From: Thermodesulfobacteriota bacterium
GTDB taxonomy: Bacteria > Desulfobacterota_D > UBA1144 > Nemesobacterales > N074bin48
Direction of reading: 5' to 3'
Assembly: GCA_041572575.1 (NCBI GenBank)
Contig: JBFFSH010000024.1
Coordinates: forward strand, 1-33,307
DNA: 33,307 nt
Shown here: piece by piece, positions 1 to 18,375 of the stretch
Numbering within the stretch: the stretch's first letter is position 1
Layout: each line of letters begins with the position of its first letter
The notes under the pieces: model-generated
What the model saw: only the letters and a program-made list of their open reading frames with translations
Told to the model about the DNA's origin: nothing
Database searches by the model: none
Program-made: the position numbers and the translations under genes

Positions 1-1
1 T

Positions 2-790: not shown

Positions 791-794
791 TATT

Positions 795-812
795 CTGCGC
801 AGACTTGCGCAA
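795..812. promoter_or_regulatory. Tandem TGCGCA palindromes 10 bp apart; putative protein-binding site
   Basis: CTGCGCAG (795-802) and TTGCGCAA (805-812) form a GC-rich patch in an AT-rich intergenic spacer. Confidence 0.35.
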
Positions 813-836
813 CACTCTATCTGGCAATCTTTGAGT

Positions 837-1019
837 ATGGATTCAGGGATTGACTTAACTACACAATCTGAACTAGAGAATGCTCTCAGAAATAAAGAGG
901 CTAAAAAGAGATTGTGCACATTTTTCGAGGTTTTAATGAAAATAAATAAGCGTGAAAAATTGGTGAAGATAGAAAATGAAGATAATAAGCGAGATACAGG
1001 TAATTCCAGTAAAAGCTAA
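837..1019 (+). CDS. Small hypothetical protein (~60 aa) of the element
   Basis: ATG at 837 (the track starts at TTG 831). It is co-oriented with the other element genes and overlaps the next gene by 44 nt. Confidence 0.55.
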   Translation: MDSGIDLTTQSELENALRNKEAKKRLCTFFEVLMKINKREKLVKIENEDNKRDTGNSSKS

Positions 1020-1233
1020 CAAGGGATTGATAGCTTTTTGCAGTTTTGTTCTTTATGAATCAATTTACTGTAGTTCTGTTGGAATCTATACAAGTCCTCA
1101 TGGCGGTTATCGTCTTGTATATCCAACCAAGACCGTAAACAAGTGAGACTTAAATATCTTTCATCCCATAAATAATAAACTGGGGAAATTAATTGAATAC
1201 GAGGTAACAAAGATAGTAAAGATAATATTCTAG
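976..1233 (+). pseudogene. SpoVG-like nucleic-acid-binding protein (85 codons) interrupted by an in-frame TGA at 1144-1146
   Basis: Manual translation gives MKIISEIQVIPVKANKGLIAFCSFVLYESIYCSSVGIYTSPHGGYRLVYPTKTVNK*DLNIFHPINNKLGKLIEYEVTKIVKIIF*. The SpoVG-like pattern (MKI.EI...L.AF.S....P......DIFHPIN) continues across the stop. Confidence 0.8.
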
Positions 1234-1259
1234 CAAACATAAAATTTAATGAAAATGTG

Positions 1260-2408: not shown

Positions 2409-2433
2409 AAATAAGTTTATGATATTTCAATAT

Positions 2434-2646
2434 ATGGAAATCAAGATATCAGACATTCTGACAAGAATAAAGTTGATTAGAGAACAAAATGAGATTACTC
2501 AACGAGAGTTAAGCATTATGTCTGGTATAAGTTATTCCACATTGACAAAACTAGAAACAGGAATAATTAAAAACCCGTCATTTCTAGTGATTTTAAAAAT
2601 ATCAAGAGCTCTAGATATTAAATTGGATGATTTGTTGGTTGATTAA
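2434..2646 (+). CDS. XRE/Cro-C1 family helix-turn-helix regulator
   Basis: IKLIREQNEITQRELSIMSGISYSTLTKLETG...NPS...KISRALDI is a typical HTH_3 pattern. ATG 2434 is preferred to the track start at 2395, which overlaps the rep gene. Confidence 0.9.
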   Translation: MEIKISDILTRIKLIREQNEITQRELSIMSGISYSTLTKLETGIIKNPSFLVILKISRALDIKLDDLLVD

Positions 2647-2666
2647 ATTACAATTATAGAAAAGAC

Positions 2667-4127
2667 ATGAAAGCAATACTTTTAGCAAGAGCATCAACTG
2701 AAGAGCAAGATACCGAAGGTCAATTAATCAAACTTAAAGAATATGCAGATAGGTGTGGTTTTACATATTCCAAAGGAGATATATTTGATTTTCATGAATC
2801 AGCTTATAAACCTGAACGGAAAAAATTTGAACAAGTTATTGAAGGTCTAAAGAATAAGACTAATAGAACAGCTTTATGTTGTGATAAAATAGATAGGCTA
2901 GTTAGAAACTTTCTGATTTATCTACCTATTATTGATGAATTGCGTAAATCTGGGATTGTAGAGCTCCACTTTGCTTCTGATAACATAAAACTAGATAGTG
3001 ACTCCCCAGCTACTGATTTATTTAGGTTCAATATGGGTGTAGCTCTTGCTCAATATTATTCAGATTCAATCAGAGATAATGTAAAAAGATCAATCTATAA
3101 AAGAATTAAGTCTGGTCAAATACTTAGTAAAGCACCTTACGGGTATAAAAATATTACAAATGATGATGATTCAAAGACGATAATTCCAGACCCGTTTGAA
3201 TCTAATATAGTTCTTAAATTATATGAATTATACGCAACTGGTGCATACTCATTCAGAGAACTTAGATCAAAAATCAATAAAGATTTCAATGTTAAATTGG
3301 CTATGTCCACAATTGCGGATATTCTGGATAACAAATTTTATATTGGTATTGCTACATATAAAAAAGAAGGAACTGAGTATCCACATATCTATCCTACTAT
3401 TGTTCCAGAGAATATTTACAATGCAGTACAAGATTTAAAATTGTGTAGAGACCTTAAATCTACAACAAAATTCAAATATGCTGGAAAAATTTTTTATTAC
3501 AGAGGCTTAATTAAGTGTGCTGTTTGTGGTTATTCTTTATCACCAGAAGAGCATAGAGGTAAAAAATATTACTGTTGTACAGAGTATGGAGGTAAACATG
3601 ATGCTAAATATGTGAATGAAGATATTCTAACCGAAGAATTTTCAAATGTTTTTAAGCGTATTTCAGTTTCTGAGGAAACAGCTAAACAAATAATTAAAGA
3701 CCTTCATCAATTAAATGAAACAAATCTTGCAATATCACAAGAACTGATAAATAAACTTAGAAGAGATAAAGATGTAATACGAAATCGAAAATCAAAGTTA
3801 TATGATGACTACTGCGATGCAAGTATTACTAAGGAATTCTATGAAGTAAAACACAAACAATATGAAACCGATTTAAATAAGATTGAAGACAAATTAAGTA
3901 ATGTAGATGAAACTGATAAAAGCTTTTATATTACTGCTGGGTATATAGTTGAGCTTGCTAAGCATAGCAGAGAGTTATTCAGATGTTCGGAATATGAAGA
4001 AAGAAGGCTTTTAATCAAAACTGTACTTACGAACGCTACATGGAATGGCGAAAACCTAAGCTATACTTACTTAGAACCATTCAACCTACTAGCAGAAATG
4101 AACGAAAGTCTGGTATGGGGTGGATGA
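2667..4127 (+). CDS. Large serine recombinase (resolvase, recombinase, Zn-ribbon and coiled-coil regions)
   Basis: ARAS with catalytic Ser10, DKIDRLVRN, APYGY, LDNKFYIG, Zn ribbon KCAVCG...YYCC; 486 aa. Confidence 0.95.
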   Translation: MKAILLARASTEEQDTEGQLIKLKEYADRCGFTYSKGDIFDFHESAYKPERKKFEQVIEGLKNKTNRTALCCDKIDRLVRNFLIYLPIIDELRKSGIVELHFASDNIKLDSDSPATDLFRFNMGVALAQYYSDSIRDNVKRSIYKRIKSGQILSKAPYGYKNITNDDDSKTIIPDPFESNIVLKLYELYATGAYSFRELRSKINKDFNVKLAMSTIADILDNKFYIGIATYKKEGTEYPHIYPTIVPENIYNAVQDLKLCRDLKSTTKFKYAGKIFYYRGLIKCAVCGYSLSPEEHRGKKYYCCTEYGGKHDAKYVNEDILTEEFSNVFKRISVSEETAKQIIKDLHQLNETNLAISQELINKLRRDKDVIRNRKSKLYDDYCDASITKEFYEVKHKQYETDLNKIEDKLSNVDETDKSFYITAGYIVELAKHSRELFRCSEYEERRLLIKTVLTNATWNGENLSYTYLEPFNLLAEMNESLVWGG

Positions 4128-4194
4128 CCGGAATTGAACCGGCGACCTCCTGGGCCACAACCAGGTGCTCTAACCAAGCTGAGCTACACCCACC
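4116..4194 (-). tRNA. tRNA-His (GTG) with encoded G-1 and CCA
   Basis: The reverse complement folds as G-GTGGGTG TA GCTC AGCTTGGTTA GAGC A CCTGG TTGTGGC CCAGG AGGTC GCCGG TTCAATT CCGGT CATCCAC C CCA. The anticodon is at 4158-4156, and the G-1:C73 His identity pair is present. Confidence 0.98.
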
Positions 4195-4246
4195 ATACTA
4201 ATTAATAAGGATCGTTATTTTACATAATAAAAATAAAAATTACAGA

Positions 4247-4606
4247 CTATTTGTGTGCTTTATTAATATTTTCTAAATATTCCTTTAATGCTGCTGCATT
4301 ATTATACTTTGTTTCCTTTGCGCTGAACATAAGAGTAGTCTTTGAATTTGATATAATACTGAGGAAATGATCCAGATTAATACTATCAAGCTCACGAAAA
4401 TATCTTTTCTTAAATTCCACCCATTTATCCGGGGTGTGATTAAACCATTTTCTTAATTCATGAGAAGGTGCGATATCTTTTTCCCAGTGATCCACCCTGG
4501 CCTTGTCTTTAGATAATCCTCTGGGCCATAGCCTGTCTACAAGGATTCTTTTGCCGTCCTCTACCGATGGTTTATCATAAATTCTCTTGATTTTGATGTC
4601 GGACAT
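4247..4606 (-). CDS. DUF488 / YeaO family protein
   Basis: IKIKRIYD...RILVDRLWPRGLSK...WEKDIAPSHELRKWFNH...NNAAALKEYL; likely ATG at 4606. Confidence 0.92.
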   Translation of the reverse strand: MSDIKIKRIYDKPSVEDGKRILVDRLWPRGLSKDKARVDHWEKDIAPSHELRKWFNHTPDKWVEFKKRYFRELDSINLDHFLSIISNSKTTLMFSAKETKYNNAAALKEYLENINKAHK

Positions 4607-4665
4607 AACAAGCTGGATCAAATTAGTGTAATAATATCAGGGGAACAAAAACATAGATAAAAAGT

Positions 4666-5010
4666 TTATAGTTCTGCAGAATTTTTCATATAATATTTTA
4701 ATAGTTCTGCATTTGGTCTGTTAAACTTAATGCCCATCTTGGCCTGCTGATTAGGGTGTTCGGTAACCCATACTACTTTGCCTTCCACTGTAACAACTTC
4801 GTCCACTAACATGTTTTCCGAATCATATTTGGTAAGGTGAATATTAATACATATGGACGCGTCTACTGGAAGGGCAACATCGGAGAGAAGAGAAAGACCA
4901 TTTGGAGAGAGGTTATAGGTGTATCCGTCATTTATAGGATGGTTGGTCGAAAATGTGACTTTTTCATCTACTAAAATTCTTGGATGCTCTCTTCTTTCTT
5001 TATCAGACAT
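4666..5010 (-). CDS. Stand-alone PilZ domain protein (c-di-GMP receptor)
   Basis: RxxxR motif (RREHPR), D/NxSxxG motif (NLSPNG), and GKVVW...MGIKF. Confidence 0.9.
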   Translation of the reverse strand: MSDKERREHPRILVDEKVTFSTNHPINDGYTYNLSPNGLSLLSDVALPVDASICINIHLTKYDSENMLVDEVVTVEGKVVWVTEHPNQQAKMGIKFNRPNAELLKYYMKNSAEL

Positions 5011-5111
5011 AATGTACTCATTCTTCTAAAATGGTTACTTATTATAATACTTTATTGTGAATAATTCTATATGTTTAGTTAATAAATTGATGCAGGTTTG
5101 TAAGTCGTTTG

Positions 5112-6848
5112 TTATTTAATCGCAAACTGAAGCTCTATTTCGCCAAAATATGATAGATCATCCTCTTCAAATGCACTGCCGGGGAAAAATAGACCGCCTA
5201 TGAATGCTACCTTTACATATTCTGTGATACTTGCGCCGAGGATTAAATCAATCTCATGTCCTATGTCTCTGCTTTCACCCGTGGGATCAGGCTCAATATC
5301 AGGACTTACAAGCCTGTCTCTTTTCTCGACCTGGTAAAAATAATGATAAACAAGATCTAATGATTTTTTCTTATGAGGTTTAATTCCTATCCCAAGTGTA
5401 GTTATAAATAAATTAGAAAGCTCAGGGTCAAAAACCTCGCCATAGTATTTAAAGTTAGTAGATCCTTTAAATCTCGCATTATTATCTTCAAGCCCAGTTT
5501 GCCTGAAGTCTTTAGAGCCAAATGCTGAGGCAATGGTGAAATTTGGCCTAAGCGGAAGTTTGAATGATTTACTAAACCCTGCGTCAACTCCATAACCCTG
5601 TTTCCATTCCTTGTCTCTATTTCTACCAATAAAAACAGCATTATCAATCCAGATTTTATTCCTGTTGTTTAAAGGTCTGCCTCTCCATGAAGCGCCAAAG
5701 GTATATGTATCGTCTATTCCGTCTCTATCCTGTCTTACTACACCAAACAGTGCAAACATTTCTTTTTTATCATATTCATATTGGGAATAAAGAACATAAT
5801 TTACTGTTTTATCCCGATCGTCCTCTAAATCTATTAGTATCGAACTTACAGATAGCTCGGCACTAAATTTTCCTGGCTTATAATACACTCTAAATGCATC
5901 CAGGTTATCGTCGTATATCCACTCCCTGTCATCCTTAAACCTCTGCCTTCCTACCTGCAAATCAAAATGCTGTTCTGTAAAATCTCTCCAGTGAATATAT
6001 GCTCTGCGAAGCTCAACATCTGTTTTTTCCTCTCCGACATCAAATTCATCTTCAATTAATTGTAGGTCCGTAAATCTTCCTTCAGCATAAATATCGATGT
6101 TTGGTAGGGGGTTGATAAGCCCAGCAGCGCTTACCTGAGTTTCGAATCTTGATAGAGTATCTCCAATATTACTATCAAGATCTTCGCTGTTATTCCTGAT
6201 ATCAAATTTTAGATTAACTTTACCGCCCACTGATATTTTATCGCCAATCTTTATTGGGAGCGGGGGTTTTGCATCAGGGTCAAAAGGCTCGTCACCGTTC
6301 TCGCCATTGAATTGATTATTAAGTGTTTCTTCTCCAAAATCAGTTTGTGAAATGCCCGAAGCTTTAATATTGTCAGCGGAATCATTTTTATCATTGCTTG
6401 CTGCATACACTTTAGGCTTTCGGTTTTTATCACTATTATTTTCAAACGATATTTCCAGGCGGCTGGGTTTACTAAGACGCGTAATTTTCGGATCATGCCT
6501 CTCTGAAAGATCAAATACTACTCTTGCTGTATTGGTATTAAACTGTGCTGAGCGTATACGCTTTACTAATGAATCTGATGTGTCTAATGTATGAGGTATT
6601 TGTTTACCAAGTTTTGAATCTTTAAAATCGATATAAACCCTGTATGGCTCATTTTTGTTTTCGGGTACTTTACCAACATTGTAATTGGTGTTGCCTGATA
6701 AATATATAGTATAAATATTGCTCGTACTGTTCTGGGTATGATCTATCTTATTAATAATATTTGATTGCTCAATACCGAAAGCGTGGTTGTTAGATATCAG
6801 GATTAAGAATATGAAAACTATTTTTCTTAAATAATCGGGTATGTCCAT
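5112..6848 (-). CDS. AMIN domain fused to an alginate-export (AlgE-like) outer-membrane beta-barrel
   Basis: Signal peptide ending AFG. AMIN pattern PYRVYIDF...VKRIRSAQF...ARVVFDL. AlgE-like motifs GRQRF.DDREW.YDDNLDA, FRQTGLEDN, YYGEVFDPELSNL and IGHEIDL. Confidence 0.85.
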   Translation of the reverse strand: MDIPDYLRKIVFIFLILISNNHAFGIEQSNIINKIDHTQNSTSNIYTIYLSGNTNYNVGKVPENKNEPYRVYIDFKDSKLGKQIPHTLDTSDSLVKRIRSAQFNTNTARVVFDLSERHDPKITRLSKPSRLEISFENNSDKNRKPKVYAASNDKNDSADNIKASGISQTDFGEETLNNQFNGENGDEPFDPDAKPPLPIKIGDKISVGGKVNLKFDIRNNSEDLDSNIGDTLSRFETQVSAAGLINPLPNIDIYAEGRFTDLQLIEDEFDVGEEKTDVELRRAYIHWRDFTEQHFDLQVGRQRFKDDREWIYDDNLDAFRVYYKPGKFSAELSVSSILIDLEDDRDKTVNYVLYSQYEYDKKEMFALFGVVRQDRDGIDDTYTFGASWRGRPLNNRNKIWIDNAVFIGRNRDKEWKQGYGVDAGFSKSFKLPLRPNFTIASAFGSKDFRQTGLEDNNARFKGSTNFKYYGEVFDPELSNLFITTLGIGIKPHKKKSLDLVYHYFYQVEKRDRLVSPDIEPDPTGESRDIGHEIDLILGASITEYVKVAFIGGLFFPGSAFEEDDLSYFGEIELQFAIK

Positions 6849-6902
6849 TTTATTTTTTTTAATAGTAAATTATCAACCTCCCTGTACTTTACTGTTAGTG
6901 TT

Positions 6903-9263
6903 TTATAAATAATCTTGTAGTCTTTGTTCACATAGGTTGAGAATTTGTTCAGTATAAATACATCTGTCTACAAAAAGGGTGCTTATATAAATATGTCTTA
7001 GAAGAGTAAGAGTCTTATAGGCTTGTATTGAGTCTGGACAGATAAGATCTGAAATGCTTAAGTATTGCTTTTCTATTTCATTTTCTATATCTAGATACCC
7101 GTCCGCATTCCCATTGGTTCTTATACTTAGCTCTGTTAAATGAGCAAGGAAATTACCTATATCAACAGCGGGGTCCCCTTTGCAGTACAGATCGAAGTCT
7201 AATAAATATATTCTGTTGCCGTTTATAATAAGCTGGTCATGATAAAAATCTCTATGAATACTGCATAGTACCGGATCAGCTATGGATGATGCCAGATTCT
7301 TAGCTGCTAAAAGAGTATTGTTTATCCGGCCTGAAAGTGTAGGTTTGCTAACCGACACCTTACTCAGTCTGTCTTCTAGAATTTCTATCTCGTTATCTAT
7401 TGTATGAGTTTTTCCGCTATCAATATTGCATTTGTGAATTTTATGTGCGGACCTGGCAATTAACTTTGTATATTCAAGCCCATTTGTGCTTAATAGCAGG
7501 TTTCTGTAATTATCTCCATCTACCTTTCTTTGAAACCACATATTCAAGTTTTTGTTATAGAATACGGGTTTAGGTATAGAAATAAAATCATCAGACTTTT
7601 CATCGAAGCCAGAATTGTATAATGCATCATTTAACTTATAATTACTTTTAACTGACCCTCTTGCCTTAGTCTTTCCAATTAAGCATAGATTCCTGTTGTT
7701 GCGAAATTTATATTCCAACAAGCATCTTCTTTCTTTTTTATATCTTATAACCTCTATACTTGATATTTTTGGTTTTGGTTGACTGTTGGAGAGCATATGT
7801 GTATCAAACAATGACTGCATATACTCAGGATCAAGAGCGTATTTCATGTAAGGCATTCTGCTATCGCTTGCTGCTGAATGGCTGTCATCTATCTCTATAT
7901 AATTATCTTCTGAACTAACATAAAATGTATTTTTATTCTTAAGCTTATCGGTTGTCTGTTTTATATATTCCAGAAGATCGTAAATACTATTATCCCAGTC
8001 TCCATATCTGTATTTAAACGGATCGGTAAGAAGTCTTATCAGGCATGCAACTGTAAAAATATTTATATCATCGGCATCTATTCTGATTTTAGATGTTTTA
8101 AAAAAACCGTTTTCTATAGATTCTCTTATCTCTGTAACCAAACTCGAATTTAGGCTTATTTTATATGACTGATTAATATAATGTGCAATAAAATTTCCAA
8201 TATCAAAAGCCGGGTGGCCAAGGCATGACTGATCAAAATCCAATAAGCACAATGAACTATCTCCAGTACTTTCCCTGCTGCCCACAATTACCTGATCTGC
8301 ATTAAAATCACCATGAATAGGTATGTAAATATCCGGGATATTTAAAAGCAGCTCTGATACTCTGTTAACTATCCTGTTTATTTTTACTGATATGTTAGGA
8401 AGAAGATACGATACATCCTGTGAAATTGAGAGCAGTTTGTAAATAAAATATTTCCTGTCAAATTTTAACTGCTTTGTTATTTTCTGATTGTTAAGCTCTC
8501 CAAGTGCTGTACCCACATTTTCAACAATATTTGCCTGAGGGTTATTATTTAATATAAGACTATTTAAATTTTTGCCGTCAACCCACTCATAAACCAGGCA
8601 ATTCAGTTTGCTAATTCTTTTTTGCAGGTTTGGGACAAAGAATGCAGAATTATTTTTATATAATCTGGAGTTAATAGCGGCATGTTCATAATAAGAATCT
8701 CCATAAAGCTTTATAACAGAAGCTTCCTTGCTATTCTTGGAAAGTTTAGCAACAAATCGTTTCTCAGGTTTATAGTTTATTGGAACTATTTCTGAATCAA
8801 TCAGGTCTTGATTTTGAGGCAGCTTGTAACTGAATAATTTATTTCTATACTCTGTATCATAGAGCTTTACAATATTTTTAAGCCTCCGGTCTACAGGAAG
8901 AAAATAGGTTATTATGCCGTTATCGAAGTTGTTAAATTCACGAGTTAATTCAACACCCTGTGACCGTTTGTGTTTGGAATCGGAAATTCTATTTTCAAGC
9001 CTTTTTCGTTCATTATCAATTTTTTGTAAACCATAGACTGTGGAATAGGCAAGTAAACTTCCAGAGTCGGAGATAAGATTATGAAGAACGATGCATTTGT
9101 TTGAAGGTTTATAGTTTAAGTAAGTGTTTTTTACCTTTTTAATTTTCAGATAAGGTAAATGCGTATTTATTCTGTTCTGAATGTATTCAGTGTCAAGTAA
9201 CAATCTTAAACCTGGAAGAGAGTTGTCTCTTAAGGTTAATTCTTTATCTATTTGGGACAGCAT
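6903..9263 (-). CDS. Protein with two tandem aminoglycoside-phosphotransferase-like (APH/choline kinase fold) domains
   Basis: Two motif sets, IHGDFNADQV/LLDFD/GHPAFDIGNF and IHRDFYHDQL/LLDFD/GDPAVDIGNF, with repeated YKP..R/C lead-ins. Confidence 0.85.
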   Translation of the reverse strand: MLSQIDKELTLRDNSLPGLRLLLDTEYIQNRINTHLPYLKIKKVKNTYLNYKPSNKCIVLHNLISDSGSLLAYSTVYGLQKIDNERKRLENRISDSKHKRSQGVELTREFNNFDNGIITYFLPVDRRLKNIVKLYDTEYRNKLFSYKLPQNQDLIDSEIVPINYKPEKRFVAKLSKNSKEASVIKLYGDSYYEHAAINSRLYKNNSAFFVPNLQKRISKLNCLVYEWVDGKNLNSLILNNNPQANIVENVGTALGELNNQKITKQLKFDRKYFIYKLLSISQDVSYLLPNISVKINRIVNRVSELLLNIPDIYIPIHGDFNADQVIVGSRESTGDSSLCLLDFDQSCLGHPAFDIGNFIAHYINQSYKISLNSSLVTEIRESIENGFFKTSKIRIDADDINIFTVACLIRLLTDPFKYRYGDWDNSIYDLLEYIKQTTDKLKNKNTFYVSSEDNYIEIDDSHSAASDSRMPYMKYALDPEYMQSLFDTHMLSNSQPKPKISSIEVIRYKKERRCLLEYKFRNNRNLCLIGKTKARGSVKSNYKLNDALYNSGFDEKSDDFISIPKPVFYNKNLNMWFQRKVDGDNYRNLLLSTNGLEYTKLIARSAHKIHKCNIDSGKTHTIDNEIEILEDRLSKVSVSKPTLSGRINNTLLAAKNLASSIADPVLCSIHRDFYHDQLIINGNRIYLLDFDLYCKGDPAVDIGNFLAHLTELSIRTNGNADGYLDIENEIEKQYLSISDLICPDSIQAYKTLTLLRHIYISTLFVDRCIYTEQILNLCEQRLQDYL

Positions 9264-11094
9264 ATATCTTGTTTTTTAAATCATTTTCTGCTGGATTTTG
9301 CAGGTAGTATTGCTTTTTATAATCATTACATGAAACAACCATACTGTTATGATTTCCACAATCTAATATTTCTCCGTCTTTTATATAAAAAATCTGATCA
9401 GCTTTTAATGCCTGCTTTAATTTATGTGTTACCAAAATTGTAGTTCTGTTTTTTCTCAGGTGTTCTATGGCCTGTATTACTTTTGCTTCATTGTTTTCAT
9501 CAAGTGATGCTGTGGGCTCATCTAGGATTAGTATAGGAGTATCTCTGAGTATTGCTCTTGCAATTGCAATTCTTTGTCTCTGCCCATTTGAAAGCGTTGT
9601 ACCCCTCTCGCCAACAATTGTGTCATAACCATTTGGCATAGTGCTAATAAATTCATGAGCGTTAGCAAGTGTAGCTGCGTTAACTATCTGTTCATGGCAT
9701 ACATATTTTAAGCCGCCAGAAATATTATCCTTAATACTTTCAGCAAATAATATATTGTCCTGTAGAAGAACAGTTATCTGTGAGCGTAACGAATCAATCT
9801 TGTATTTCCTAATATCTTCACCATCAACACATACAGTTCCCTGATTTGGATCATACAGCCTCATAAGCAGACTAAGTATCGTAGATTTGCCGTTTCCAGA
9901 CGGTCCTACAAGAGCTATAAACTGTCCGGGGTTGATTTTAAATGATATGTTTTTTATCGTATCAACCTTATCTGAATAAGAGAAACTAACTTTATCAAAC
10001 TTTATATTCCCCTTAAAATCCGGAGCTTCTATGGAATCGGGGGTATCCACAATATCAGGACTAACTTCCAGAACATCTAGTACTCTTTCGCCTGATGCTA
10101 CCGCTCTTGATAGCCTGCCTGTATATTTCACTGTATCCCTTATGGGTTTGAATGCGGCTTTTAGATAAGTTACAAAGACCAATATGTCCCCCGGGGTAAT
10201 TTCATGCAGAAATACCAGTCTTACTCCATACCAAAGCACAATAGCGGTGCTTGCAGCAACTATGATATCCACAGACCTTCCAAGATTAGCTTCAATCTTT
10301 TTTGCCTTAACACTGTCTTTAAATCCTTTTTGGCTTTGTGTAGAAAATATGTTTAAAAACTTATTGTGCAAAAAGAGGGCCTGTACGGTTTTAATGGCGT
10401 TAATAGACTCTGCAGCAGTGGCAGCCATTGCTCCCTCTCTTCTTCTTTGATCGCGTGATACATTGTGCAGGCGCCTGCTAAGAGTTTTTGTTCTTAACCA
10501 AAAAAAAGGGAGCAGCATTATAGAAACAAGAGTGAGCTTCCAGTGCATAAACAGCATAACCGACAGGATTCCGGTTATAATCAGGATATTTCCAATAAAA
10601 GGCAGTACGGCGGTGACTGTTACATCTCTTAGTATTCCAACGTCGCTTATTAGTCTTAAAGTCAGGTCTCCGCTTTTGCTTTTGTCATGAAATCTAAGTG
10701 AGAGCTTTTGGAGGTGATCAAAAAGTCTCTCTCTTATTTTTACCATTACCCTGTTGCCAACTACCGCAAAACCAATAGTGCTGTAGTAATTGGCAATAGA
10801 CCTAAGGGCTGTAAATATTATAAGCGAAACACAAAGTATGATAAGAACTGAGTTGTTATCAAAGTTTTTGAAATAACCGGTTATAGTATTTTCTTTACTT
10901 AAATCATTTAGTAGCAGATAATCGAATATATATTTTATGGGCCAGGGTTCGAGAAGCCTGAAACCCACCTGAGCAAACAGTGCCAGAGTGGATAATGCAA
11001 TTATAGTTTTCTGCTTTCCTATATATGCAGAAAAATATTTAAATATGTGTATTAAGCTTGGAATAAGCTCTCTTATATTTTTCTTACTAGACAT
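9244..11094 (-). CDS. ABC exporter, fused permease and ATPase (MsbA/PglK-like architecture)
   Basis: N-terminal TM helices, Walker A GPSGNGKST, signature variant LSNGQRQR, Walker B ILILDEPT, and H-loop VTH. Confidence 0.95.
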   Translation of the reverse strand: MSSKKNIRELIPSLIHIFKYFSAYIGKQKTIIALSTLALFAQVGFRLLEPWPIKYIFDYLLLNDLSKENTITGYFKNFDNNSVLIILCVSLIIFTALRSIANYYSTIGFAVVGNRVMVKIRERLFDHLQKLSLRFHDKSKSGDLTLRLISDVGILRDVTVTAVLPFIGNILIITGILSVMLFMHWKLTLVSIMLLPFFWLRTKTLSRRLHNVSRDQRRREGAMAATAAESINAIKTVQALFLHNKFLNIFSTQSQKGFKDSVKAKKIEANLGRSVDIIVAASTAIVLWYGVRLVFLHEITPGDILVFVTYLKAAFKPIRDTVKYTGRLSRAVASGERVLDVLEVSPDIVDTPDSIEAPDFKGNIKFDKVSFSYSDKVDTIKNISFKINPGQFIALVGPSGNGKSTILSLLMRLYDPNQGTVCVDGEDIRKYKIDSLRSQITVLLQDNILFAESIKDNISGGLKYVCHEQIVNAATLANAHEFISTMPNGYDTIVGERGTTLSNGQRQRIAIARAILRDTPILILDEPTASLDENNEAKVIQAIEHLRKNRTTILVTHKLKQALKADQIFYIKDGEILDCGNHNSMVVSCNDYKKQYYLQNPAENDLKNKIYAVPNR

Positions 11095-11112
11095 TTATTG
11101 CTTATTAGCCTG

Positions 11113-12270
11113 CTAATTTAATTTTTTTACTATATCAATAATTCTTTTAGCAATAGCATCCCAGGAGTTGTTCTTAACACTTTCTTTTCCCTCTTTGCCA
11201 ATTTTTTGACTAATATCCTTATTATCTTTTAAAAACTGAAGGTTATCGCAAAGAGACCCAACATTACCGGGGGCAAACAGCTTTCCGTTCTCAAAGTCTT
11301 TAACTATTGACTGAATCTGCTTTACATCGCTTGCAAGTACCGGTACTCCTGCTGCCATATATTCATAAATTTTAAGTGGTGAAAAATAAAAATTCTGGTC
11401 ATCAAGATAGGGAGCCACGGCAATATCAAGTGAAGCAAGGTAGCCTGGAATTTGAGAATGCTCTACTGAGCCTGTTAAAATTACAGAGTCTGAAATACCT
11501 TTACTGTTAATTTGGTTTTCTAAGTTTGCCCTTTCCTTGCTGTCACCTACTATAAGCAGGATGCTTTGAGGATTTCTTTTTAAAAATAGCTCAAATGCAT
11601 CTATAAGCATTGAAACCCCATGCCATTTTTTTAGTGAGCCAACAAAACCAATTACAAATTTGCCCTTAATATTTCCTAGTTCGGGTTGTTTAGCATTATT
11701 AAACTTTTTGGTATTAACTCCGTTTGGGAATACATACACCTCTTTGTCGTTGTTCAGAAATCGTTGTACATATTTTCTAATAGGATCAGAAACAACTGTT
11801 AATACCGGGCTATTATTGAAGTTCTTTTTTGCAATACCAAGTGCGGTGTCTTCGTTTATGAGTTTTCTATACTTTTTTTCCTCTTCAATTAAAGGAGCAT
11901 TAATTTCCAGCACGCTTGGTATTTTATTTTGCTTTGCATATTCAATTGCCGAATAACTCCAAAGTGAATATCGTTCATAAATTAAATCATATTTTTTGGA
12001 GTCTCTCAGATAACGAAGCAGGTCACTGTTCATATCAATACAAAGATTTTCCCTGGTTTCTAAATCACCTTTTGGTGCATCTGGAAGTTTTATGATCTTT
12101 ACTTCTTCAAGCCCGCTTGGTGTATTACCATCTACTCTTGGAGTATACAAGTCCACTCTAGCTCCATTATTTATCATTGACCTGATAATTTCCTGAACAT
12201 GTATGGAGCTTCCCTTTGTGCCATATGAAGGTATTCCGGGGTCTGCATTTATATAAGCTATATTCATCAT
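11113..12270 (-). CDS. Glycosyltransferase family 4
   Basis: PNGVN, GFVGSLKKWHG and FSPLKIYEYMAAGVPVLAS. Confidence 0.93.
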   Translation of the reverse strand: MMNIAYINADPGIPSYGTKGSSIHVQEIIRSMINNGARVDLYTPRVDGNTPSGLEEVKIIKLPDAPKGDLETRENLCIDMNSDLLRYLRDSKKYDLIYERYSLWSYSAIEYAKQNKIPSVLEINAPLIEEEKKYRKLINEDTALGIAKKNFNNSPVLTVVSDPIRKYVQRFLNNDKEVYVFPNGVNTKKFNNAKQPELGNIKGKFVIGFVGSLKKWHGVSMLIDAFELFLKRNPQSILLIVGDSKERANLENQINSKGISDSVILTGSVEHSQIPGYLASLDIAVAPYLDDQNFYFSPLKIYEYMAAGVPVLASDVKQIQSIVKDFENGKLFAPGNVGSLCDNLQFLKDNKDISQKIGKEGKESVKNNSWDAIAKRIIDIVKKLN

Positions 12271-12271
12271 T

Positions 12272-13525
12272 TTATACCGCTATTTTATTGTCCTTCTTGT
12301 TAATCGCCTGTTCGAACAGTTTTGCTAATTTAGGTGCATTCTTTTCTATATCAAACAAACTCTCTACTCTTTTTCTGCCACTCTCAGAAAACTCCAATTG
12401 TAACTCTGGGTTTTCTAATAATATTTGTATAGATTCTGCAAGCTTCTCTGGATCTTTTTGCTCAACTAATATCCCGGATATATTGTTTTCTATTATTTCT
12501 GGTATTGCGCTTACTTTGGTTGAAATTACCGGTACTTTCATTGCCATGGCTTCAATTAGAACCGTAGGTAATACATCTCTGTCCCCTGAGTCATCTATAA
12601 TAGAAGGCAGTACAAATACATTTGAACTGTAAAGAAGTTCAATTATCTGTTCCTGATTATTTGATCCCAATAGCTCTACGTGGTTACTTAAATCATATAA
12701 ATCAATTAATGATTCGAGATTACTACGTTGGCTGCCATCTCCCACAATTAGGCACTTAAAATCAATTAATTTATTCTTAAGTATACGGGCTGATTCAATA
12801 AGGAATTCAAATCCCTTCTTCATTTCTAACCTGCCTACCGCAAGGACAATATCTTTGTTATTGGCGTTTGTTTTATTGCTGTCTTTACTAAATCTGTGAA
12901 GATCTATTCCGTTATATAATCTGATAATTTTATGATCATCAGTTTTAAATTTATTTCCCAAAAACGCTTTGTTATATTCAGATACTGTTATCACGAATTC
13001 CGATTTATTAATTTTAAGACCAAGATCACCGTAATTAACATCATTTTTATATATATCTTTTGCATGAGTTGTAAAAGAAAAACTGATATTTGCCAGTAGT
13101 GAAGCCTGCATTGCAACATTTGATGCTGTTCCAAAATGAGAATGTAAATGAGTTATATTATTTGCAGTACAAATTGAGGCTATAGCTGAGGCTCTGATAT
13201 GGTTTTTGTTATCTTCATTATCTGGATCATCTATTATACTTTCTATACTTTGTTCCTTAATGGTATCGCTGGCAGGATCCAAAATTTTTATTTTGCTGTT
13301 TTTAAGGACCCTTTTATTTGGCAAGTAAATAACCTTCGCTTTTAATTGTTTTAAATATTTATGAGATATCACGGAATCTTCAGTGTCAAAAGGGTTTTTT
13401 ATGGAAAAGATGATTATATTTATACCAAGTTTTTCTAGTTGTAATAACTCATTTAGGATAAATGTTTCAGAAAGCCTAGGAAACTTTTTTAAAACATAAC
13501 CAATAGTAAGATTACTGTATTGCAT
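12272..13525 (-). CDS. Glycosyltransferase family 4 (WcaL-like)
   Basis: FPRLSETFILNE, HLHSHF, TTHAKD, VGRLEMKKG and DVLPTVLIEAMA. Confidence 0.93.
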   Translation of the reverse strand: MQYSNLTIGYVLKKFPRLSETFILNELLQLEKLGINIIIFSIKNPFDTEDSVISHKYLKQLKAKVIYLPNKRVLKNSKIKILDPASDTIKEQSIESIIDDPDNEDNKNHIRASAIASICTANNITHLHSHFGTASNVAMQASLLANISFSFTTHAKDIYKNDVNYGDLGLKINKSEFVITVSEYNKAFLGNKFKTDDHKIIRLYNGIDLHRFSKDSNKTNANNKDIVLAVGRLEMKKGFEFLIESARILKNKLIDFKCLIVGDGSQRSNLESLIDLYDLSNHVELLGSNNQEQIIELLYSSNVFVLPSIIDDSGDRDVLPTVLIEAMAMKVPVISTKVSAIPEIIENNISGILVEQKDPEKLAESIQILLENPELQLEFSESGRKRVESLFDIEKNAPKLAKLFEQAINKKDNKIAV

Positions 13526-14816
13526 TGCTTAAACCTCTTTGTAGTTTTTTATGCTCCAAAGCAATTACGGGTGAGGGTGAAGCGAGATTGTCATTTAAGC
13601 TAAGTAGCAGGTCCGATAACCGGCCTATAGTATTGTTAATATTAAATCTGTCTTCTATTTTCTTTCTTGCTGCAAATGAAAGCCTTAGTCTTAAGGCTTT
13701 ATCATTAAATAATTTCTCAATTGATTTTGATAGCAGATCTGGATTCTCCGGCGGTGCCAATAAACCAGATTTATTATCATCTATTATTTCTTCCATAGCT
13801 GGTATGGAGGTAGTTATAACGGGGATACCCACAGCCATTGCTTCTTTGATAACATTTGGAATAACATCCCTGTCACCGTTTTCTAAAACCCTGCATGGAA
13901 GCACAAACATTGTTGCACTCTTATACAGCTCAATCAAGTCATCGTGGCCAAGTGCACCAACAAGCTTTACATGTTTTTTTAGGTTTAGTTCGGAAATAAG
14001 TTGTTTAAGATATTTATATTTAGAACCCTCGCCAACAATGCAGCATTCAAAGCTAATACCTTTATCTATAAGTTTTTTGCAAGATTTAATCAAAAGATCA
14101 AACCCTTTTTTCTCTTCTAACCTGCCGACGCTAAGTATTAGATTTTTAGTTTTAACTGCAGGCGTATAGGTGAATTTATTTAAATCGATTCCATTATAGA
14201 CAGTAAACACTTTGTTTTCATATTCGATTCCCAATGCATTTATTATGTCCGCTTTACTGGTATTACTATTGGCAATAACAAATTCTGCATTTTTTAACCG
14301 ATTAATTGTCGAAACAGAGTTAAGTGTGTTGTCTAAATATATATCTTTTGCATGAGTAGAAATTGAATAGGGCATTCCTGTGATTCGATTAACCAGGGTC
14401 ACAAGTCTTGTAGGAACTGTTGCGAAATGTGCATGTAAGTGAGTGCACTCTCCCATATCCTTGATAATACAGCAGCACTGAAAAAATCTAATGAGCGATT
14501 TGCTGTTTGAATTAAGAAATTTGACCTTAAGTGCACGAATAAAAGTCTTTAATGTTCTGCCGGGGAACTTTAGAAACACATTTAGAAAGGCAATTAATAT
14601 TTGCAACTTTTCTGTACCAAGAAATTCTGGAAGATGTGTAGTCTGAGATCTGACATCTTTTACCTTGTTGTGCTCAATGGTTTCAGATGGATATTTAGAT
14701 GAGAAAATATGAAGATTGAATCCCATTTTTTCTAATTCTACAATTTCATTTAATATGAAAGTTTCAGAAAGCCTTGGGAACATCTTGACCACATATGCTA
14801 TTTTTTTATTATTCAT
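13512..14816 (-). CDS. Glycosyltransferase family 4 (WcaL-like), paralogue of the downstream gene
   Basis: FPRLSETFILNE, HLHAHF, STHAKD, VGRLEEKKG and DVIPNVIKEAMA. Confidence 0.93.
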   Translation of the reverse strand: MNNKKIAYVVKMFPRLSETFILNEIVELEKMGFNLHIFSSKYPSETIEHNKVKDVRSQTTHLPEFLGTEKLQILIAFLNVFLKFPGRTLKTFIRALKVKFLNSNSKSLIRFFQCCCIIKDMGECTHLHAHFATVPTRLVTLVNRITGMPYSISTHAKDIYLDNTLNSVSTINRLKNAEFVIANSNTSKADIINALGIEYENKVFTVYNGIDLNKFTYTPAVKTKNLILSVGRLEEKKGFDLLIKSCKKLIDKGISFECCIVGEGSKYKYLKQLISELNLKKHVKLVGALGHDDLIELYKSATMFVLPCRVLENGDRDVIPNVIKEAMAVGIPVITTSIPAMEEIIDDNKSGLLAPPENPDLLSKSIEKLFNDKALRLRLSFAARKKIEDRFNINNTIGRLSDLLLSLNDNLASPSPVIALEHKKLQRGLSNAIQ

Positions 14817-14827
14817 AGGTCTTATTT

Positions 14828-16021
14828 CTACAGTGCAACCTTATATTTGTGGTTTTCGGAACATTCCCCGTTTATTATATTTATAATTAATTGTGGAATT
14901 CTACTAAGGCCATCGAGGTCTATTCGGCAGTAACTATCTGATTCAGTAATATCTTTACAAAGCCATGATTGTATATTATTTGATGACAGTTCACTTGGTA
15001 ATATAGTATCAATTAAACCAATTTCACTTAATTTTTGACCTCTAATTATCTGTTCTTTTCTTGAATTTATTCTTGGAACAATTAAAGCCTTCTTTTTGTT
15101 TGCCAACAGCTCGCAGACCGTGTTGTATCCTCCCATAGAGATAATACGTTTCGCATCACTAAATAACTTGATTGGATCTGGTATAAACTCGATAAGCTTA
15201 ATTGTTTTGTTGTGTGCTACTTTTACTTTAAGCCGGTCTTTATCATCACCAGACATGTAAGGCCCTGTGAGCAAAACTCCAACATAGCCCCTGGGCATTG
15301 TCGTATCAGCAAATGTATCTGCTAATACTATTCCATCCTGCCCCCCGCCAACTACACAAAGCACTACCTTCTTATTGCCAAAGTCATTATCAATATATTT
15401 CTTTCTTCTTTCTTTATAATCACCCAAATCGGTCTGCCCAAGATAGCCAGTAAATGATAGTTTGTTTCTAATATCATCTGGAAATCCGCAGTCATCTGCC
15501 ATGTTATAAATATTTGGATCACCATAGATCCAAATATGGTCATAGTAGTTTCTTGTGAATTCTATTATTTTCTTTTTGTTCCAATCTTTATTTACATAAT
15601 CCGGATCACCCAGAATGTCTCTTAATCCGAGTACGCAGATCGTGTCGGAATATTTGTTGACATATTTAAGGGTTTTGGTTAATTCGCCGAGCCCGCCTTT
15701 GGCAGCGTAATCGACAATGAAAATGTCTGGTGAGTAGGACTTGATTGTTTCTTTGATAATGCCAGATCTTAAAGTTATAAGCTCATCCAGTGATACTTTT
15801 AGTGATTTAGGCTCATAATCACTATCTGATTCTTTGTAATAAGATGGCAATGTAAGACAATCTACGCCCTTGGGAACATTAAATTTATTAATCTCTTTCG
15901 CACCGGTTATGAGTAAGACTGATGAATTTGGGAAACTTGCTGATATTTTATTAGATATCAAAAGGTTTCGTCTCATATGACCAAGCCCTTTAGTATCATG
16001 AGAGTAAATTGCTATTTTCAG
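14828..16021 (-). CDS. Predicted glycosyltransferase, COG4671 / GT28-C-terminal-like; true start uncertain and upstream of the track start
   Basis: The frame continues upstream of 15976 as LKIAIYSHDTKGLGHMRR (conserved YSHD.xGLGH motif). Also GLRDILG, VGGGQDG, SMGGYNT and VPR...EQ. Confidence 0.85.
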   Translation of the reverse strand: MKIAIYSHDTKGLGHMRRNLLISNKISASFPNSSVLLITGAKEINKFNVPKGVDCLTLPSYYKESDSDYEPKSLKVSLDELITLRSGIIKETIKSYSPDIFIVDYAAKGGLGELTKTLKYVNKYSDTICVLGLRDILGDPDYVNKDWNKKKIIEFTRNYYDHIWIYGDPNIYNMADDCGFPDDIRNKLSFTGYLGQTDLGDYKERRKKYIDNDFGNKKVVLCVVGGGQDGIVLADTFADTTMPRGYVGVLLTGPYMSGDDKDRLKVKVAHNKTIKLIEFIPDPIKLFSDAKRIISMGGYNTVCELLANKKKALIVPRINSRKEQIIRGQKLSEIGLIDTILPSELSSNNIQSWLCKDITESDSYCRIDLDGLSRIPQLIINIINGECSENHKYKVAL

Positions 16022-16231
16022 TTTTGCAGAAAAAAGATCATTCTCTGTGACTTGTTCTTTAGCTCTTAGTGTTGTAATCCCAGAGCTTTTGATCCTTTTA
16101 TGCGAAGAGTATCCATCTTTATTTAGTAAAGAAATTTCATCATCCTCCTGCTAATAATAATTCTGAAAGGTAAACTATAAAGGGTAGGCCATATAAACAG
16201 CCAGGGTTAAGCATAAAGCTACATTACACCC

Positions 16232-16337
16232 CACATTTTCGGCAACCTAGCTACCATAAACATCATGCCAGTATGATGTTCTTAGGCCCACGGCTTTGCG
16301 TCCCAACCCTTTCAAGTGGTTTGCCTTTTCAGTACAT
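16232..16337 (-). ncRNA. Cyclic di-GMP-I (GEMM) riboswitch
   Basis: The minus strand reads AAAAGGCAAACCACTTGAAAGGGTTGGGACGCAAAGCCGTGGGCCTAAG-AACATCAT ACTGGC ATGATGTT-TATGGTAGCTAGGTTGCCGAAA. It shows the P2 GAAA tetraloop, the GACGCAAAG junction and a complete 11-nt tetraloop receptor CCUAAG/UAUGG. Ends are approximate. Confidence 0.95.
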
Positions 16338-16343
16338 AATTCA

Positions 16344-16372
16344 ATTTTAACTCCATGTTAATGCAATGTCAA
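16344..16372 (-). promoter_or_regulatory. Sigma70-type promoter for the riboswitch/glycosyltransferase operon
   Basis: TTGACA (16372-16367), 17 bp spacer, TAAAAT (16349-16344). The predicted start near 16337 coincides with the riboswitch 5' end. Confidence 0.85.
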
Positions 16373-16713
16373 TAATGCTATGGTCTGAGACATACTATTG
16401 TATTAATCATGCATATATGCAAACTGTTTGCTTTTTTAGTATTAGAAAGAAATTGTATTATTTAATAAGTGGATTTTTTAATAAACACAATTAATATAGA
16501 AAAAGCAATCTTATGCAATTATACTAACTATCAAAATCAATACCGACTAATCTCATCTAATTTATCTGATACTCATTTTAATGACGCTGATAACAGTAAT
16601 ATACTCAATTTGTGCAAACAGTCTTTATGAAAGGGGTAAAACTGTATTTTATTAGAATTAAAACATATAGATTGATATAAAAATGAAGTTTTAATATAAT
16701 TAATAAGAATAAA

Positions 16714-17910
16714 GTGAGATTAAATCAAATCGATTTAAAAAAAGTACACAAGATAGGATCTCGAATAAATATTTGGAAACAAGATCCAAGTGTAAAAGAG
16801 CTTGGAGTCAGAACTACATTCGTTCACAATAGAGTAGACCCAGGCCCTTGTGATTCTCAGATTATCATTAAGGGGCTCCCATTAGTATACCCAGATTCCA
16901 ACGGCGATTTTCTGTTCCCGACACCGGATCAATATGTTGTCGGTGACATTTATAACCCTCCGACAATAACTTTTTTAGAAAAAAGTTTTGATGCTGCTCA
17001 CACTTACGCAATAGTTCGCAAGGTTTTAATTATGTATGAAAGGGTATTGGGTAAAAGAATAAAATGGGCATGGAATTCCGATACAAACAGTGAGCCCCTT
17101 CAGGTATATCCTCATGCAAATCTTGGAAGATGGGCCTATTATGAAAGAGACCTTAAATCTATAAGGTTTCAATATTACTACATACCCGACCACATGCCTA
17201 TTTTCACATGCCGTTCACTTGATGTCGTGTCCCATGAGACAGGTCATGCCATATTTGATGCATTAAAACCCGAGTGGAGCGTTTCAGAACCCAGAAGAGG
17301 TATATCTTTGGAGATAGGGGCAATTCAGGAATCACTTGCGGATCTTACATCTATGTTTCTTATTCTCTCACAACTTGACCTTGTTGAGTATATTATTACG
17401 GAGACAAAAGCAGATCTGAATTATGAAAAAAACATATTAGCTGTTTGGTGGGAACAACTTGAAGAAATTGGTTATATGGGGCCAAGAAGCGCTATAAATG
17501 ATTTAAAGCTAAGTGAAGCCGGAACGCAGGTGCATAGAATCTCAGAGGTATTTACCGGTGCCGTTTATGATATACTTGCAGATATATTCGCTTCTTCCAG
17601 AGAGCCGGATTTCAGAAGCGATGCAGAGACGTTATATATGATTGGTCAGTACATGCTATCACTCATAGTAAAATCAGTACTCAGATCACCCGACACTGAA
17701 GTTAGATTTGTAGATATAGTAGGTGAAATGATCAAAATCACAAAAGAGACAAGCCGTTTTGATCATGCTGAGATAATTCGAAAAAACTTTTTAAAAAGGG
17801 AAATTTTAACAGACAATGGCCAAATAAATTCCAAGATAGATCTATCAACTCTTATACCTGATTACAAAGGCTGTTGTGCAACCTTAAGCAACAACCCATA
17901 TCTAAAATGA
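16714..17910 (+). CDS. Zinc metalloprotease, gluzincin (M4/M36-like)
   Basis: DVVSHETGH (HExxH), GAIQESLAD (third zinc ligand) and VHRISEVF. No signal peptide is evident and the GTG start is uncertain. Confidence 0.8.
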   Translation: MRLNQIDLKKVHKIGSRINIWKQDPSVKELGVRTTFVHNRVDPGPCDSQIIIKGLPLVYPDSNGDFLFPTPDQYVVGDIYNPPTITFLEKSFDAAHTYAIVRKVLIMYERVLGKRIKWAWNSDTNSEPLQVYPHANLGRWAYYERDLKSIRFQYYYIPDHMPIFTCRSLDVVSHETGHAIFDALKPEWSVSEPRRGISLEIGAIQESLADLTSMFLILSQLDLVEYIITETKADLNYEKNILAVWWEQLEEIGYMGPRSAINDLKLSEAGTQVHRISEVFTGAVYDILADIFASSREPDFRSDAETLYMIGQYMLSLIVKSVLRSPDTEVRFVDIVGEMIKITKETSRFDHAEIIRKNFLKREILTDNGQINSKIDLSTLIPDYKGCCATLSNNPYLK

Positions 17911-18012
17911 TATGAATTTATAACCAGGTAATTATTAACACTTGTTAAAACATTAAAATCTCATAAAAAAATCATATCTGAAAATCCCTCTTTTCTCTAT
18001 CTACTATTCATG

Positions 18013-18375
18013 TCAATCGCCTTCAATCTCAGCCATAGACTCAAAACTTAGCAACACCTTTGCACCCTGCTCATTTTCAATCTCCAATACTTCTTCTCTG
18101 CCGGCATCATCAAATTTAACCGCAACCTGAGTTACATTTGAAATGGAATGCGTCAGATGTTTCTGTCCGGGCCTCTCACCTCCAAGCATAATTTCAACCA
18201 CCGGAGATCCCTCTCCTTTCAGTTGCAGATCGAGTCCGGACAGTGGAAGACCGTGTTCTACGGTTTGCGCACCCATTTCATCAAACTCTTTTAGACACGT
18301 TGCGCGGGAAGAATTGATGTTATTAAATTTATTAAAAAAATCTGCCCATTTGTTTTTGGTTATAACTTCATTCAT
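18013..18375 (-). CDS. DUF5335-like hypothetical protein
   Basis: I...W..FF..F, GAQ..EHGLPLSG and HLTHSI patterns; AGGAGG ribosome-binding site upstream. Confidence 0.7.
   Translation of the reverse strand: MNEVITKNKWADFFNKFNNINSSRATCLKEFDEMGAQTVEHGLPLSGLDLQLKGEGSPVVEIMLGGERPGQKHLTHSISNVTQVAVKFDDAGREEVLEIENEQGAKVLLSFESMAEIEGD

Follow-up and report, generated by a model that had tools for sequence, protein, structure and literature searches.

Several described systems export bacterial glycans with parts that recur in the locus studied here. PglK and NdvA are ATP-binding cassette (ABC) exporters of glycans, Wzk of Helicobacter stands in for Wzx, and in Escherichia coli O9a, Wzm/Wzt export is combined with the chain terminator WbdD, a kinase fused to a methyltransferase domain. 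Three canonical polysaccharide export pathways are set out in PMC4594306. The locus lies in a stretch of 33,307 nucleotides from a Thermodesulfobacteriota bacterium (GenBank assembly GCA_041572575.1, contig JBFFSH010000024.1, positions 1 to 33,307; this whole stretch is called the window) and consists of a promoter-like site, a cyclic di-GMP (c-di-GMP) riboswitch and seven genes for four glycosyltransferases (GTs), an ABC exporter, a double kinase and a porin. It lacks features that define each of the three canonical export systems, and in its proposed working would resemble ABC-flippase pathways for glycans, to which it adds a kinase step and an exit borrowed from the alginate system.

Organization of the locus

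The seven genes, the aptamer and the promoter-like site are all on the minus strand, at the positions given in an earlier note on this DNA, which had read them as one operon for an exported, probably phosphorylated glycan. The features are, in the direction of reading:

16344..16372, minus strand: sigma-70-like promoter TTGACA-17-TAAAAT, 11/12 match, immediately 5' of the aptamer
16238..16335, minus strand: c-di-GMP-I (GEMM-I) aptamer, RF01051, full length (Rfam, 70.4 bits)
16123..16149, minus strand: candidate start of gene 1, with a Shine-Dalgarno (SD) sequence AGGAGG (16149-16144), a mini open reading frame (ORF) MMKFLY with stop codon (16143-16123) and an in-frame ATT (16135)
14828..16135, minus strand: gene 1, GT-B glycosyltransferase ('COG4671' type), start uncertain (Pfam GT28 C-terminal domain, predicted fold)
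13512..14816, minus strand: GT4 paralogue A, WcaL/EpsE-like, 434 aa (Pfam; EpsE 192 bits, cut-off 400; WcaL 131 bits, cut-off 538)
12272..13525, minus strand: GT4 paralogue B, WcaL/EpsE-like, 417 aa, 38% identical to A (Pfam/NCBIfam)
11113..12270, minus strand: 385-aa GT4 of a second type (NCBIfam model stp3 scores best, under cut-off)
9244..11094, minus strand: type IV ABC half-exporter, MsbA/Sav1866-like, Walker A/B intact, signature LSNGQ
6903..9263, minus strand: fused double phosphotransferase of the aminoglycoside phosphotransferase (APH)/choline kinase fold, HGDFxxxQ/DFD and HRDFxxxQ/DFD, no predicted membrane segment
5112..6848, minus strand: AMIN domain and AlgE-like outer-membrane beta-barrel (PF13372 110.6 bits; PDB AlgE E 4e-11)
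4666..5010, minus strand: stand-alone PilZ protein, 114 aa, 101 nt after the porin; cassette membership doubtful

The aptamer and the seven packed genes were confirmed by Rfam, Pfam and the gene spacing, which is 11, -14, 1, 18, -20 and 54 nt in order. Pfam assigned Glyco_tran_28_C to the first gene, Glycos_transf_1 to the next three, ABC_membrane and ABC_tran to the exporter, APH in two stretches to the kinase and Alginate_exp to the porin, and every NCBIfam match of the seven fell under the family cut-off. Among the seven genes neither database named a GT2 synthase, Wzx/Wzy, a polysaccharide co-polymerase (PCP) or an initiating phospho-GT, which bears out that part of the earlier note. The GC content of the cluster is 34.8%, that of the genome 37.2%.

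The promoter-like site is one of two with 11/12 matches among 55 sites scored in 4000-18100. Since this total is at chance level (shuffles gave 57.5 ± 6.4), the case for the promoter rests on its position just 5' of the aptamer. A relative of the locus, L099, carries TTGACT-17-TATAAT 5' of its own aptamer.

Conservation and variants of the cassette

A scan of 27 of the 64 parts of GTDB confirmed 597 relatives of the first gene, of which the best 80 were fetched; stretches matching the first-gene patterns are estimated at ~1,400. On the same strand downstream of the first gene, the 80 loci hold a WcaL-like GT4 (71), a GT4 of the second type (67), the ABC exporter (70) and the kinase (60). GT4, ABC and kinase occur together in 52 of the 80, and in 44 of the 54 in which 9 kb or more is available for them. 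Among the hosts are Cyanobacteriota, Chloroflexota, Gemmatimonadota, Planctomycetota, Myxococcota, Calditrichota and Pseudomonadota. In E. coli, 18 of 5426 genomes carry the cassette, all of them on plasmids, with an AlgE-like porin and a gene for Ugd (UDP-glucose dehydrogenase) and beside a heat-stable enterotoxin gene; a Paracoccus copy has no porin. These neighborhoods of the GTDB loci bear out that the genes are conserved as a unit to which no synthase, Wzy or Wza/KpsD belongs.

One close relative, L098/L099 (two assemblies, recovered with L100-L103 in a second metagenome scan), shares the riboswitch and each of the seven genes, those for the cytoplasmic proteins and the ABC being 48-73% identical, and a sulfotransferase gene stands ahead of its AMIN-porin. 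A metagenome scan with window-specific patterns gave no match. One row of alignment A3, that of L102 at 18% identity, is unlikely to be homologous. A search for the first gene in 60 relatives gave only two weak matches at E ~1e-4, and in a further 119 genomes of the phylum it was not found either; as the same-genus genome G001 is 74% complete, the gene counts as not found rather than absent. That the other genomes of the phylum gave no match suggests horizontal gain; the ABC tree, a quick search with long branches, names no donor.

Variant loci carry accessory genes for Ugd (L004, L056, L125), a heparinase-III-like lyase (L006, L084, L117), a sulfotransferase (L099, L058, L075) and an NDP-sugar epimerase/dehydratase (five loci). 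As a hint from gene content, these may fit anionic-glycan chemistry. Because heparinase-III-like lyases require a uronic acid, a uronate-containing, heparosan-like product can be hypothesized. In Manganitrophus (L006:7288-10323), genes for a radical SAM/SPASM protein, a histidine phosphatase and a lyase accompany the cassette.

A second first-gene subfamily (L118-L131) stands with a paralogue, GT4s, a histidine phosphatase and SBP_bac_5, and is matched by 105 of 301 genomes in one class (that of genome G121). No kinase or porin match was found in the six loci fetched, and it is a different system. First-gene copies also occur in records labelled archaeal (L069, L083 and P0053: Thermoplasmata, Nitrosopumilus, Methanoperedens), where some labels may be binning errors.

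Comparison with known export systems

With the alginate system (Alg8/Alg44/AlgK/AlgE/AlgL) the locus shares the porin of the AlgE family, a c-di-GMP link and, in some variants, a lyase. It differs in that the seven genes include no GT2 synthase, no Alg44-type PilZ co-polymerase and no AlgK or other tetratricopeptide repeat scaffold, and in having an ABC exporter, GT-B enzymes, kinases and, in place of a PilZ co-polymerase, predicted control by a riboswitch. A 510-aa GT2 of the genome, on contig C44, stands in an unrelated context. Unlike KpsMT/KpsDE capsule loci, this locus has a single half exporter instead of a two-gene Wzm/Wzt-type ABC transporter, and no outer membrane polysaccharide export (OPX) protein or PCP, PF02563 being found only on contig C81. 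The Wzx/Wzy pathway is set apart by its initiating phospho-GT, Wzx and Wzy, all absent from the locus; PF02397 occurs only on contig C51.

There is a likeness to the pathways of PglK, Wzk, NdvA/ChvA and HepA, where a half exporter with membrane and nucleotide-binding domains in a single gene stands beside non-processive GT4s. The window exporter is one ABC_membrane and ABC_tran protein with type IV half-exporter architecture and intact motifs, and Sav1866 is its top bacterial PDB match. It stays under every NCBIfam cut-off of these families (bits/cut-off: MsbA 403/602, HepA 341/725, glucan exporter 330/733, PglK 197/1000), and compared with ABC-flippase pathways the cassette lacks an initiating phospho-GT, an oligosaccharyltransferase and a ligase and adds kinases and a porin. 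E. coli O9a resembles it in combining GT4s, a kinase and ABC export, but the cassette has a type IV exporter and its own porin in place of lipid A ligation, and its kinase, in which Pfam shows kinase domains only, is without the methyltransferase domain of WbdD.

Elsewhere in the genome, Wza/Wzc-like (C81), WbaP-like (C51), Ugd and GT2 genes are present, which makes help in trans conceivable. The distinct export logic proposed in the earlier note is supported as far as the closed unit without synthase, Wzy or Wza/KpsD goes, with room for such help. As its parts are drawn from three export pathways, knowing its product would add to the rules by which glycan export is understood.

The double kinase

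The two halves of the kinase are paralogues (probability 99.9). Both keep HxDFxxxQ, DxD and the N-lobe Lys, and the HxDxxxxN/Q pattern was found in both, with Q or H replacing N. Both kinase domains of the earlier note thus keep their catalytic motifs, with no predicted membrane segment. Across loci the C-terminal half is the common one, and the N-terminal one varies, being fused, split or missing; most cyanobacterial copies have one domain, which is doubled in the window. A profile of the C-terminal domain gave no real match in PDB, and fold searches and the Atlas led to the APH superfamily only, with structural identities to APHs of 12-17%. Since membrane segments were predicted neither in any GT of the cassette nor in the kinase, assembly and phosphorylation would precede export.

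The first gene and its start

The model of gene 1 (pLDDT 86.6) has a GT-B fold. Its matches include CalG1 (Z 26.7, root-mean-square deviation 3.5, 337 aligned), the sterol glucosyltransferase UGT51 (25.5) and MurG (22.8), with YojK and GtfA also among the nearest, and all of the top 50 are GT-B proteins at Z 19-27. Its nearest-fold enzymes (GT1/GT28) are inverting and use hydrophobic acceptors. The name 'COG4671' is presumptive: it was given by no sequence search, and a literature search for it found no paper.

The frame of gene 1 is open from 16150. Its first in-frame ATG, at 15976, lies past the motif YSHD.xGxGH, which is invariant across 41 aligned homologues, so a start there cannot give the whole enzyme. 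Behind AGGAGG, two ATGs at spacings of 0 and 3 nt lie in another frame (MMKFLY), and the in-frame ATT has a spacing of 8 nt. Of 62 AGGAGG-ATG pairs in this genome, 38 are 6-8 nt apart and four 0-3 nt; a genome survey of ATT starts gave a signal no higher than background. In L099, gene 1 has an in-frame ATG at spacing 0 and an ATC at spacing 9. No indel at the start was seen in spanning long contigs from three of four runs (three studies, two of them possibly sources of this assembly); the fourth run had no listed piece over the site. A -1 frameshift from the out-of-frame ATG was rejected by eye, there being no slippery heptamer. Initiation at an AUH codon is known from infC, and for gene 1 of the window and of L099 such a putative start (ATT here) is the favored reading.

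The porin slot

The porin carries an N-terminal AMIN domain (Pfam, E 1.2e-9), overlooked in the earlier note, and its homologues are extended by AMIN or by PF05036, which we take to be SPOR. These extensions would fit a peptidoglycan anchor replacing AlgK. AlgE-like porins were found in all five uncut ABC and kinase cassettes of one class (that of genome G120, in which 22 of 400 genomes matched and 14 were fetched) and at the cassettes L068, L073, L079, L006 and L098/L099, spread over several branches of the ABC tree. The cyanobacterial porin in this slot scores above cut-off as the SomB 'iron uptake porin'. On several branches of the ABC tree, the position after the kinase is filled by a porin of one of two unrelated families.

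As a hallmark of the cassette the AlgE-like porin is weakened. Stand-alone copies occur in 22 of 60 relatives, in none of which the first gene of the cassette was found, so that such a porin does not imply this cassette. In a tree that included four of six stand-alone porins, these four fall on one side of a branch (94/98) and 11 cassette porins apart from them, and the porin of the window is not placed together with the second AlgE-like gene that its genome holds. That gene (contig C67, 8185-9510) follows ftsK-like and lolA-like genes and has no glycan genes beside it.

The PilZ gene behind the porin, which like the missing early ATG of gene 1 had escaped the earlier note, was considered as a cassette member and found no support, with no PilZ match in the 80 GTDB loci. 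Six similar PilZ matches lie elsewhere in this genome.

The riboswitch

The aptamer matches RF01051 over the full model (positions 1-87) with 70.4 bits (gathering score 35, E 4.7e-12). It has G at model position 11, which in our mapping corresponds to G20 of Vc2, and the consensus CC at the 3' end. In PMC6140456, the G20/C92 contacts are the rule for c-di-GMP rather than cyclic GMP-AMP (c-GAMP), and by these positions the window aptamer falls in the predicted G20-type, c-di-GMP class. All 14 other full-length aptamers examined in the genome are of the G type. In L099 (2109-2207) the aptamer has A at this position; in that source an A there admits c-GAMP in other riboswitches, and c-GAMP or dual specificity is possible for this aptamer on an orthologous operon.

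Folding of the window leader found neither a terminator nor a clear SD-sequestering switch. SD accessibility was 0.60 with and 0.55 without the aptamer, the leader folding z was -1.0, and folding gave no direction of control.

The genome has 16 c-di-GMP-I matches and two GGDEF genes, and many of its aptamers precede secreted-looking ORFs (by eye). On contig C87 (7818-8472), three tandem aptamers lie 5' of a secreted-looking Cys/Asp-rich ORF. With a profile built from the genome's 14 other full-length aptamers and run on 108 loci, a riboswitch was found at the cassette in the window and in L098/L099 only. The aptamer noted earlier is real, and the predicted control of the cassette by c-di-GMP is a local trait of this lineage rather than of the pathway; in this genome such an aptamer is nothing unusual. 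As a signal of sessile life it is a regulatory clue all the same. Near 23 of the 80 cassettes (L009-L079) there is a gene for a histidine kinase, accompanied in most cases by one for a response regulator, and two-component control may be the usual regulation.

The Synechocystis cluster sll1722-1726

In Synechocystis sp. PCC 6803, sll1723 (413 aa, WcaL-like), sll1724 (379 aa, GT), sll1725 (610 aa, MsbA-like) and sll1726 (329 aa, phosphotransferase) (PMC7133116) match cyanobacterial copies of the cassette in order, lengths and annotation; sll1722 is annotated as hypothetical only. The order GT, WcaL-like GT4, GT4, MsbA-like ABC and phosphotransferase was found with matching sizes, and orthology is suggested by architecture only, the sequences of Sll1722-1726 (UniProt P73403, P73402, P73401, P73400, P73399) not being among the top 120 matches. 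Compared with the window cassette, the cluster has one GT4 and one kinase domain fewer, and according to PMC4594306 no AlgE was found in Synechocystis.

According to PMC3566033 and PMC6971039, citing Foster 2009, sll1722-1726 are involved in the production of extracellular polysaccharide (EPS) and in stress protection, which PMC3566033 specifies as protection from light and H2O2. Sll1725 is counted among MsbA homologues in one paper and reported as a Cd exporter in two reviews, and PMC4759255 and PMC3564720 describe responses to LexA, salt and ethanol, with sll1723 induced by salt and ethanol. The title of one reference claims sll1722 as a myo-inositol-1-phosphate synthase, which would not agree with the GT-B model of the first-gene family if sll1722 belongs to it. 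In the literature searched, which left out some supplementary annotation, no description of the cassette or its product was found. Mutants in the five-gene core have probably been studied in a model cyanobacterium already, with phenotypes but no described product. Of the earlier statement that no characterized product is known, the absence of a description remains, and it has to be qualified by the phenotypes reported for a cluster of the same architecture. One pathway may explain the scattered Synechocystis results on EPS, peroxide, salt and cadmium and the doubtful inositol-synthase label. The cassette is found in many phyla and on E. coli plasmids, yet its product is not described in the literature searched.

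Proposed mechanism and alternatives

The mechanism of the earlier note is the best available and, in our estimate, right with a probability of about 0.5. As we read it, non-processive GTs would build a short anionic glycan on a presumed lipid-like primer, the kinases would phosphorylate it in the cytoplasm, the ABC exporter would flip it and the porin would release it. The GT-B enzyme, judged from its predicted fold, would add the first or a beta-linked sugar, and the GT4s, retaining by family, would extend the chain non-processively. The kinase may add phosphate as a decoration or as a stop-and-export signal, by analogy with WbdD. An ABC homodimer would then export the glycan as PglK or NdvA do, and the AMIN-anchored porin (SomB-type in cyanobacteria, none in many hosts) would let it out. 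The riboswitch is predicted to tie expression to c-di-GMP. The product is probably a surface or stress-protective anionic coat. The core consists of five genes, to which porin and riboswitch are optional additions. Overall the earlier interpretation is partly supported, by the cassette core and the kinase motifs; its porin, c-di-GMP and uncharacterized status have lost ground.

Several points weigh against this mechanism. The fold search with the kinase gave no pointer to a substrate, homoserine kinase, LicA, maltokinase and APHs all scoring Z 20-22, and gene 1 may here be a recent pseudogene, the alternative to an AUH start. Among 40 full-core loci whose downstream sequence reaches 1.8 kb or more, the porin slot is AlgE-like in 2, SomB/OprB in 14 (13 of them cyanobacteria by title, the other an uncultured bacterium within the cyanobacterial clade, and most of them related) and neither in 24, many of these in diderm hosts; the AlgE-like porin recurs with the cassette in several phyla and on E. 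coli plasmids, and is accessory. The Synechocystis link is one of order, lengths and annotation, not of alignment, and according to PMC12691841 Sll1725 alone acts as a Cd efflux pump, even in duckweed, which is not obviously expected of a dedicated glycan flippase. The cassette holds no lipid-primer enzyme, yet WbaP-like and Wza/Wzc-like genes lie elsewhere in the genome. Accessory genes occur in few loci each and are minority features, and lyase and Ugd genes are widespread in glycan loci generally. RNA run X15 is even over genes, spacers and opposite-strand neighbors and may hold DNA; run X17 is patchy, and contigs cannot show transcription.

Generalized, the mechanism would amount to a fourth bacterial route of glycan secretion, which we regard as a speculative and rather unlikely extension. 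Distributive GT-Bs (one inverting, one to three retaining) would build a uronate-containing, heparosan-like alternating chain, APH-fold kinases would phosphorylate it and sulfotransferases in some hosts sulfate it, and a type IV ABC would export it, with no synthase, Wzy or OPX/PCP, by way of a peptidoglycan-anchored porin that is interchangeable, in this lineage under a c-di-GMP riboswitch and with an AUU start.

Instead, a soluble, lipid-free phospho-oligosaccharide might be pumped to the periplasm, like cyclic beta-glucan by NdvA/ChvA, likely as an osmolyte or metal chelator of which the porin leaks some. This would agree with the missing initiating phospho-GT, the often missing porin and the responses reported for the Synechocystis genes, namely their induction by salt and their Cd sensitivity. 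The 330 bits of the ABC on the glucan-exporter model can be cited for it, but they lie under the cut-off of 733 and under the MsbA scores. The first GT is nearest in fold to hydrophobic-acceptor enzymes, copies occur in Chloroflexota, which lack a classical periplasm, and an EPS phenotype is reported in Synechocystis, all of which make this reading improbable.

Less probable still is a membrane glycolipid or lipopolysaccharide-linked glycan kept in the envelope, with the porin riding along as a general uptake channel. Lyase genes in variants better fit a released polymer, and either of two unrelated porin families occupies the slot on several branches of the ABC tree. It has on its side the MsbA-like ABC, the MurG/MGD/sterol-GT-like fold of the first gene, the above-cut-off SomB 'iron uptake porin' of cyanobacteria and the commonness of stand-alone AlgE-like genes. 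A detoxification module, with the GT1-like enzyme and the APH-like kinases acting on a toxic small molecule that the multidrug-like ABC then expels, is suggested by the top folds (the natural-product GTs CalG1, YojK and GtfA, and APHs), by Sav1866 as top bacterial PDB match and by the Cd efflux reported for Sll1725. It is very doubtful, given that two or three EPS-type GT4s are almost always present (71/80 and 67/80), that Ugd, lyase and sulfotransferase genes are accessories and that the structural identities to APHs are only 12-17%. That the Wzy/Wza pathway of the genome draws a repeat unit from the cassette, the ABC replacing Wzx as Wzk does, can be put down as remote, for in spite of the WbaP-like gene on C51 and the Wza/Wzc-like genes on C81, no Wzy, Wza or Wzc family was found among the flanking genes scanned (a de-duplicated subset of flanks), and the cassette travels between phyla and on plasmids as a self-contained unit that brings its own porin.

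Neighboring sequences

Divergent from the cassette, on the plus strand (16714-17910), lies a 398-aa ORF with no Pfam/NCBIfam match and, by eye, an HETGH motif like that of zinc metalloproteases. At the other end, positions 1-4193 are low in GC (30%) and contain two ORFs without Pfam match (23-790 and 1257-2408) and a serine recombinase gene (2667-4127), whose end overlaps the 3' end of tRNA-His (4116-4193); this region is likely an element integrated at tRNA-His.

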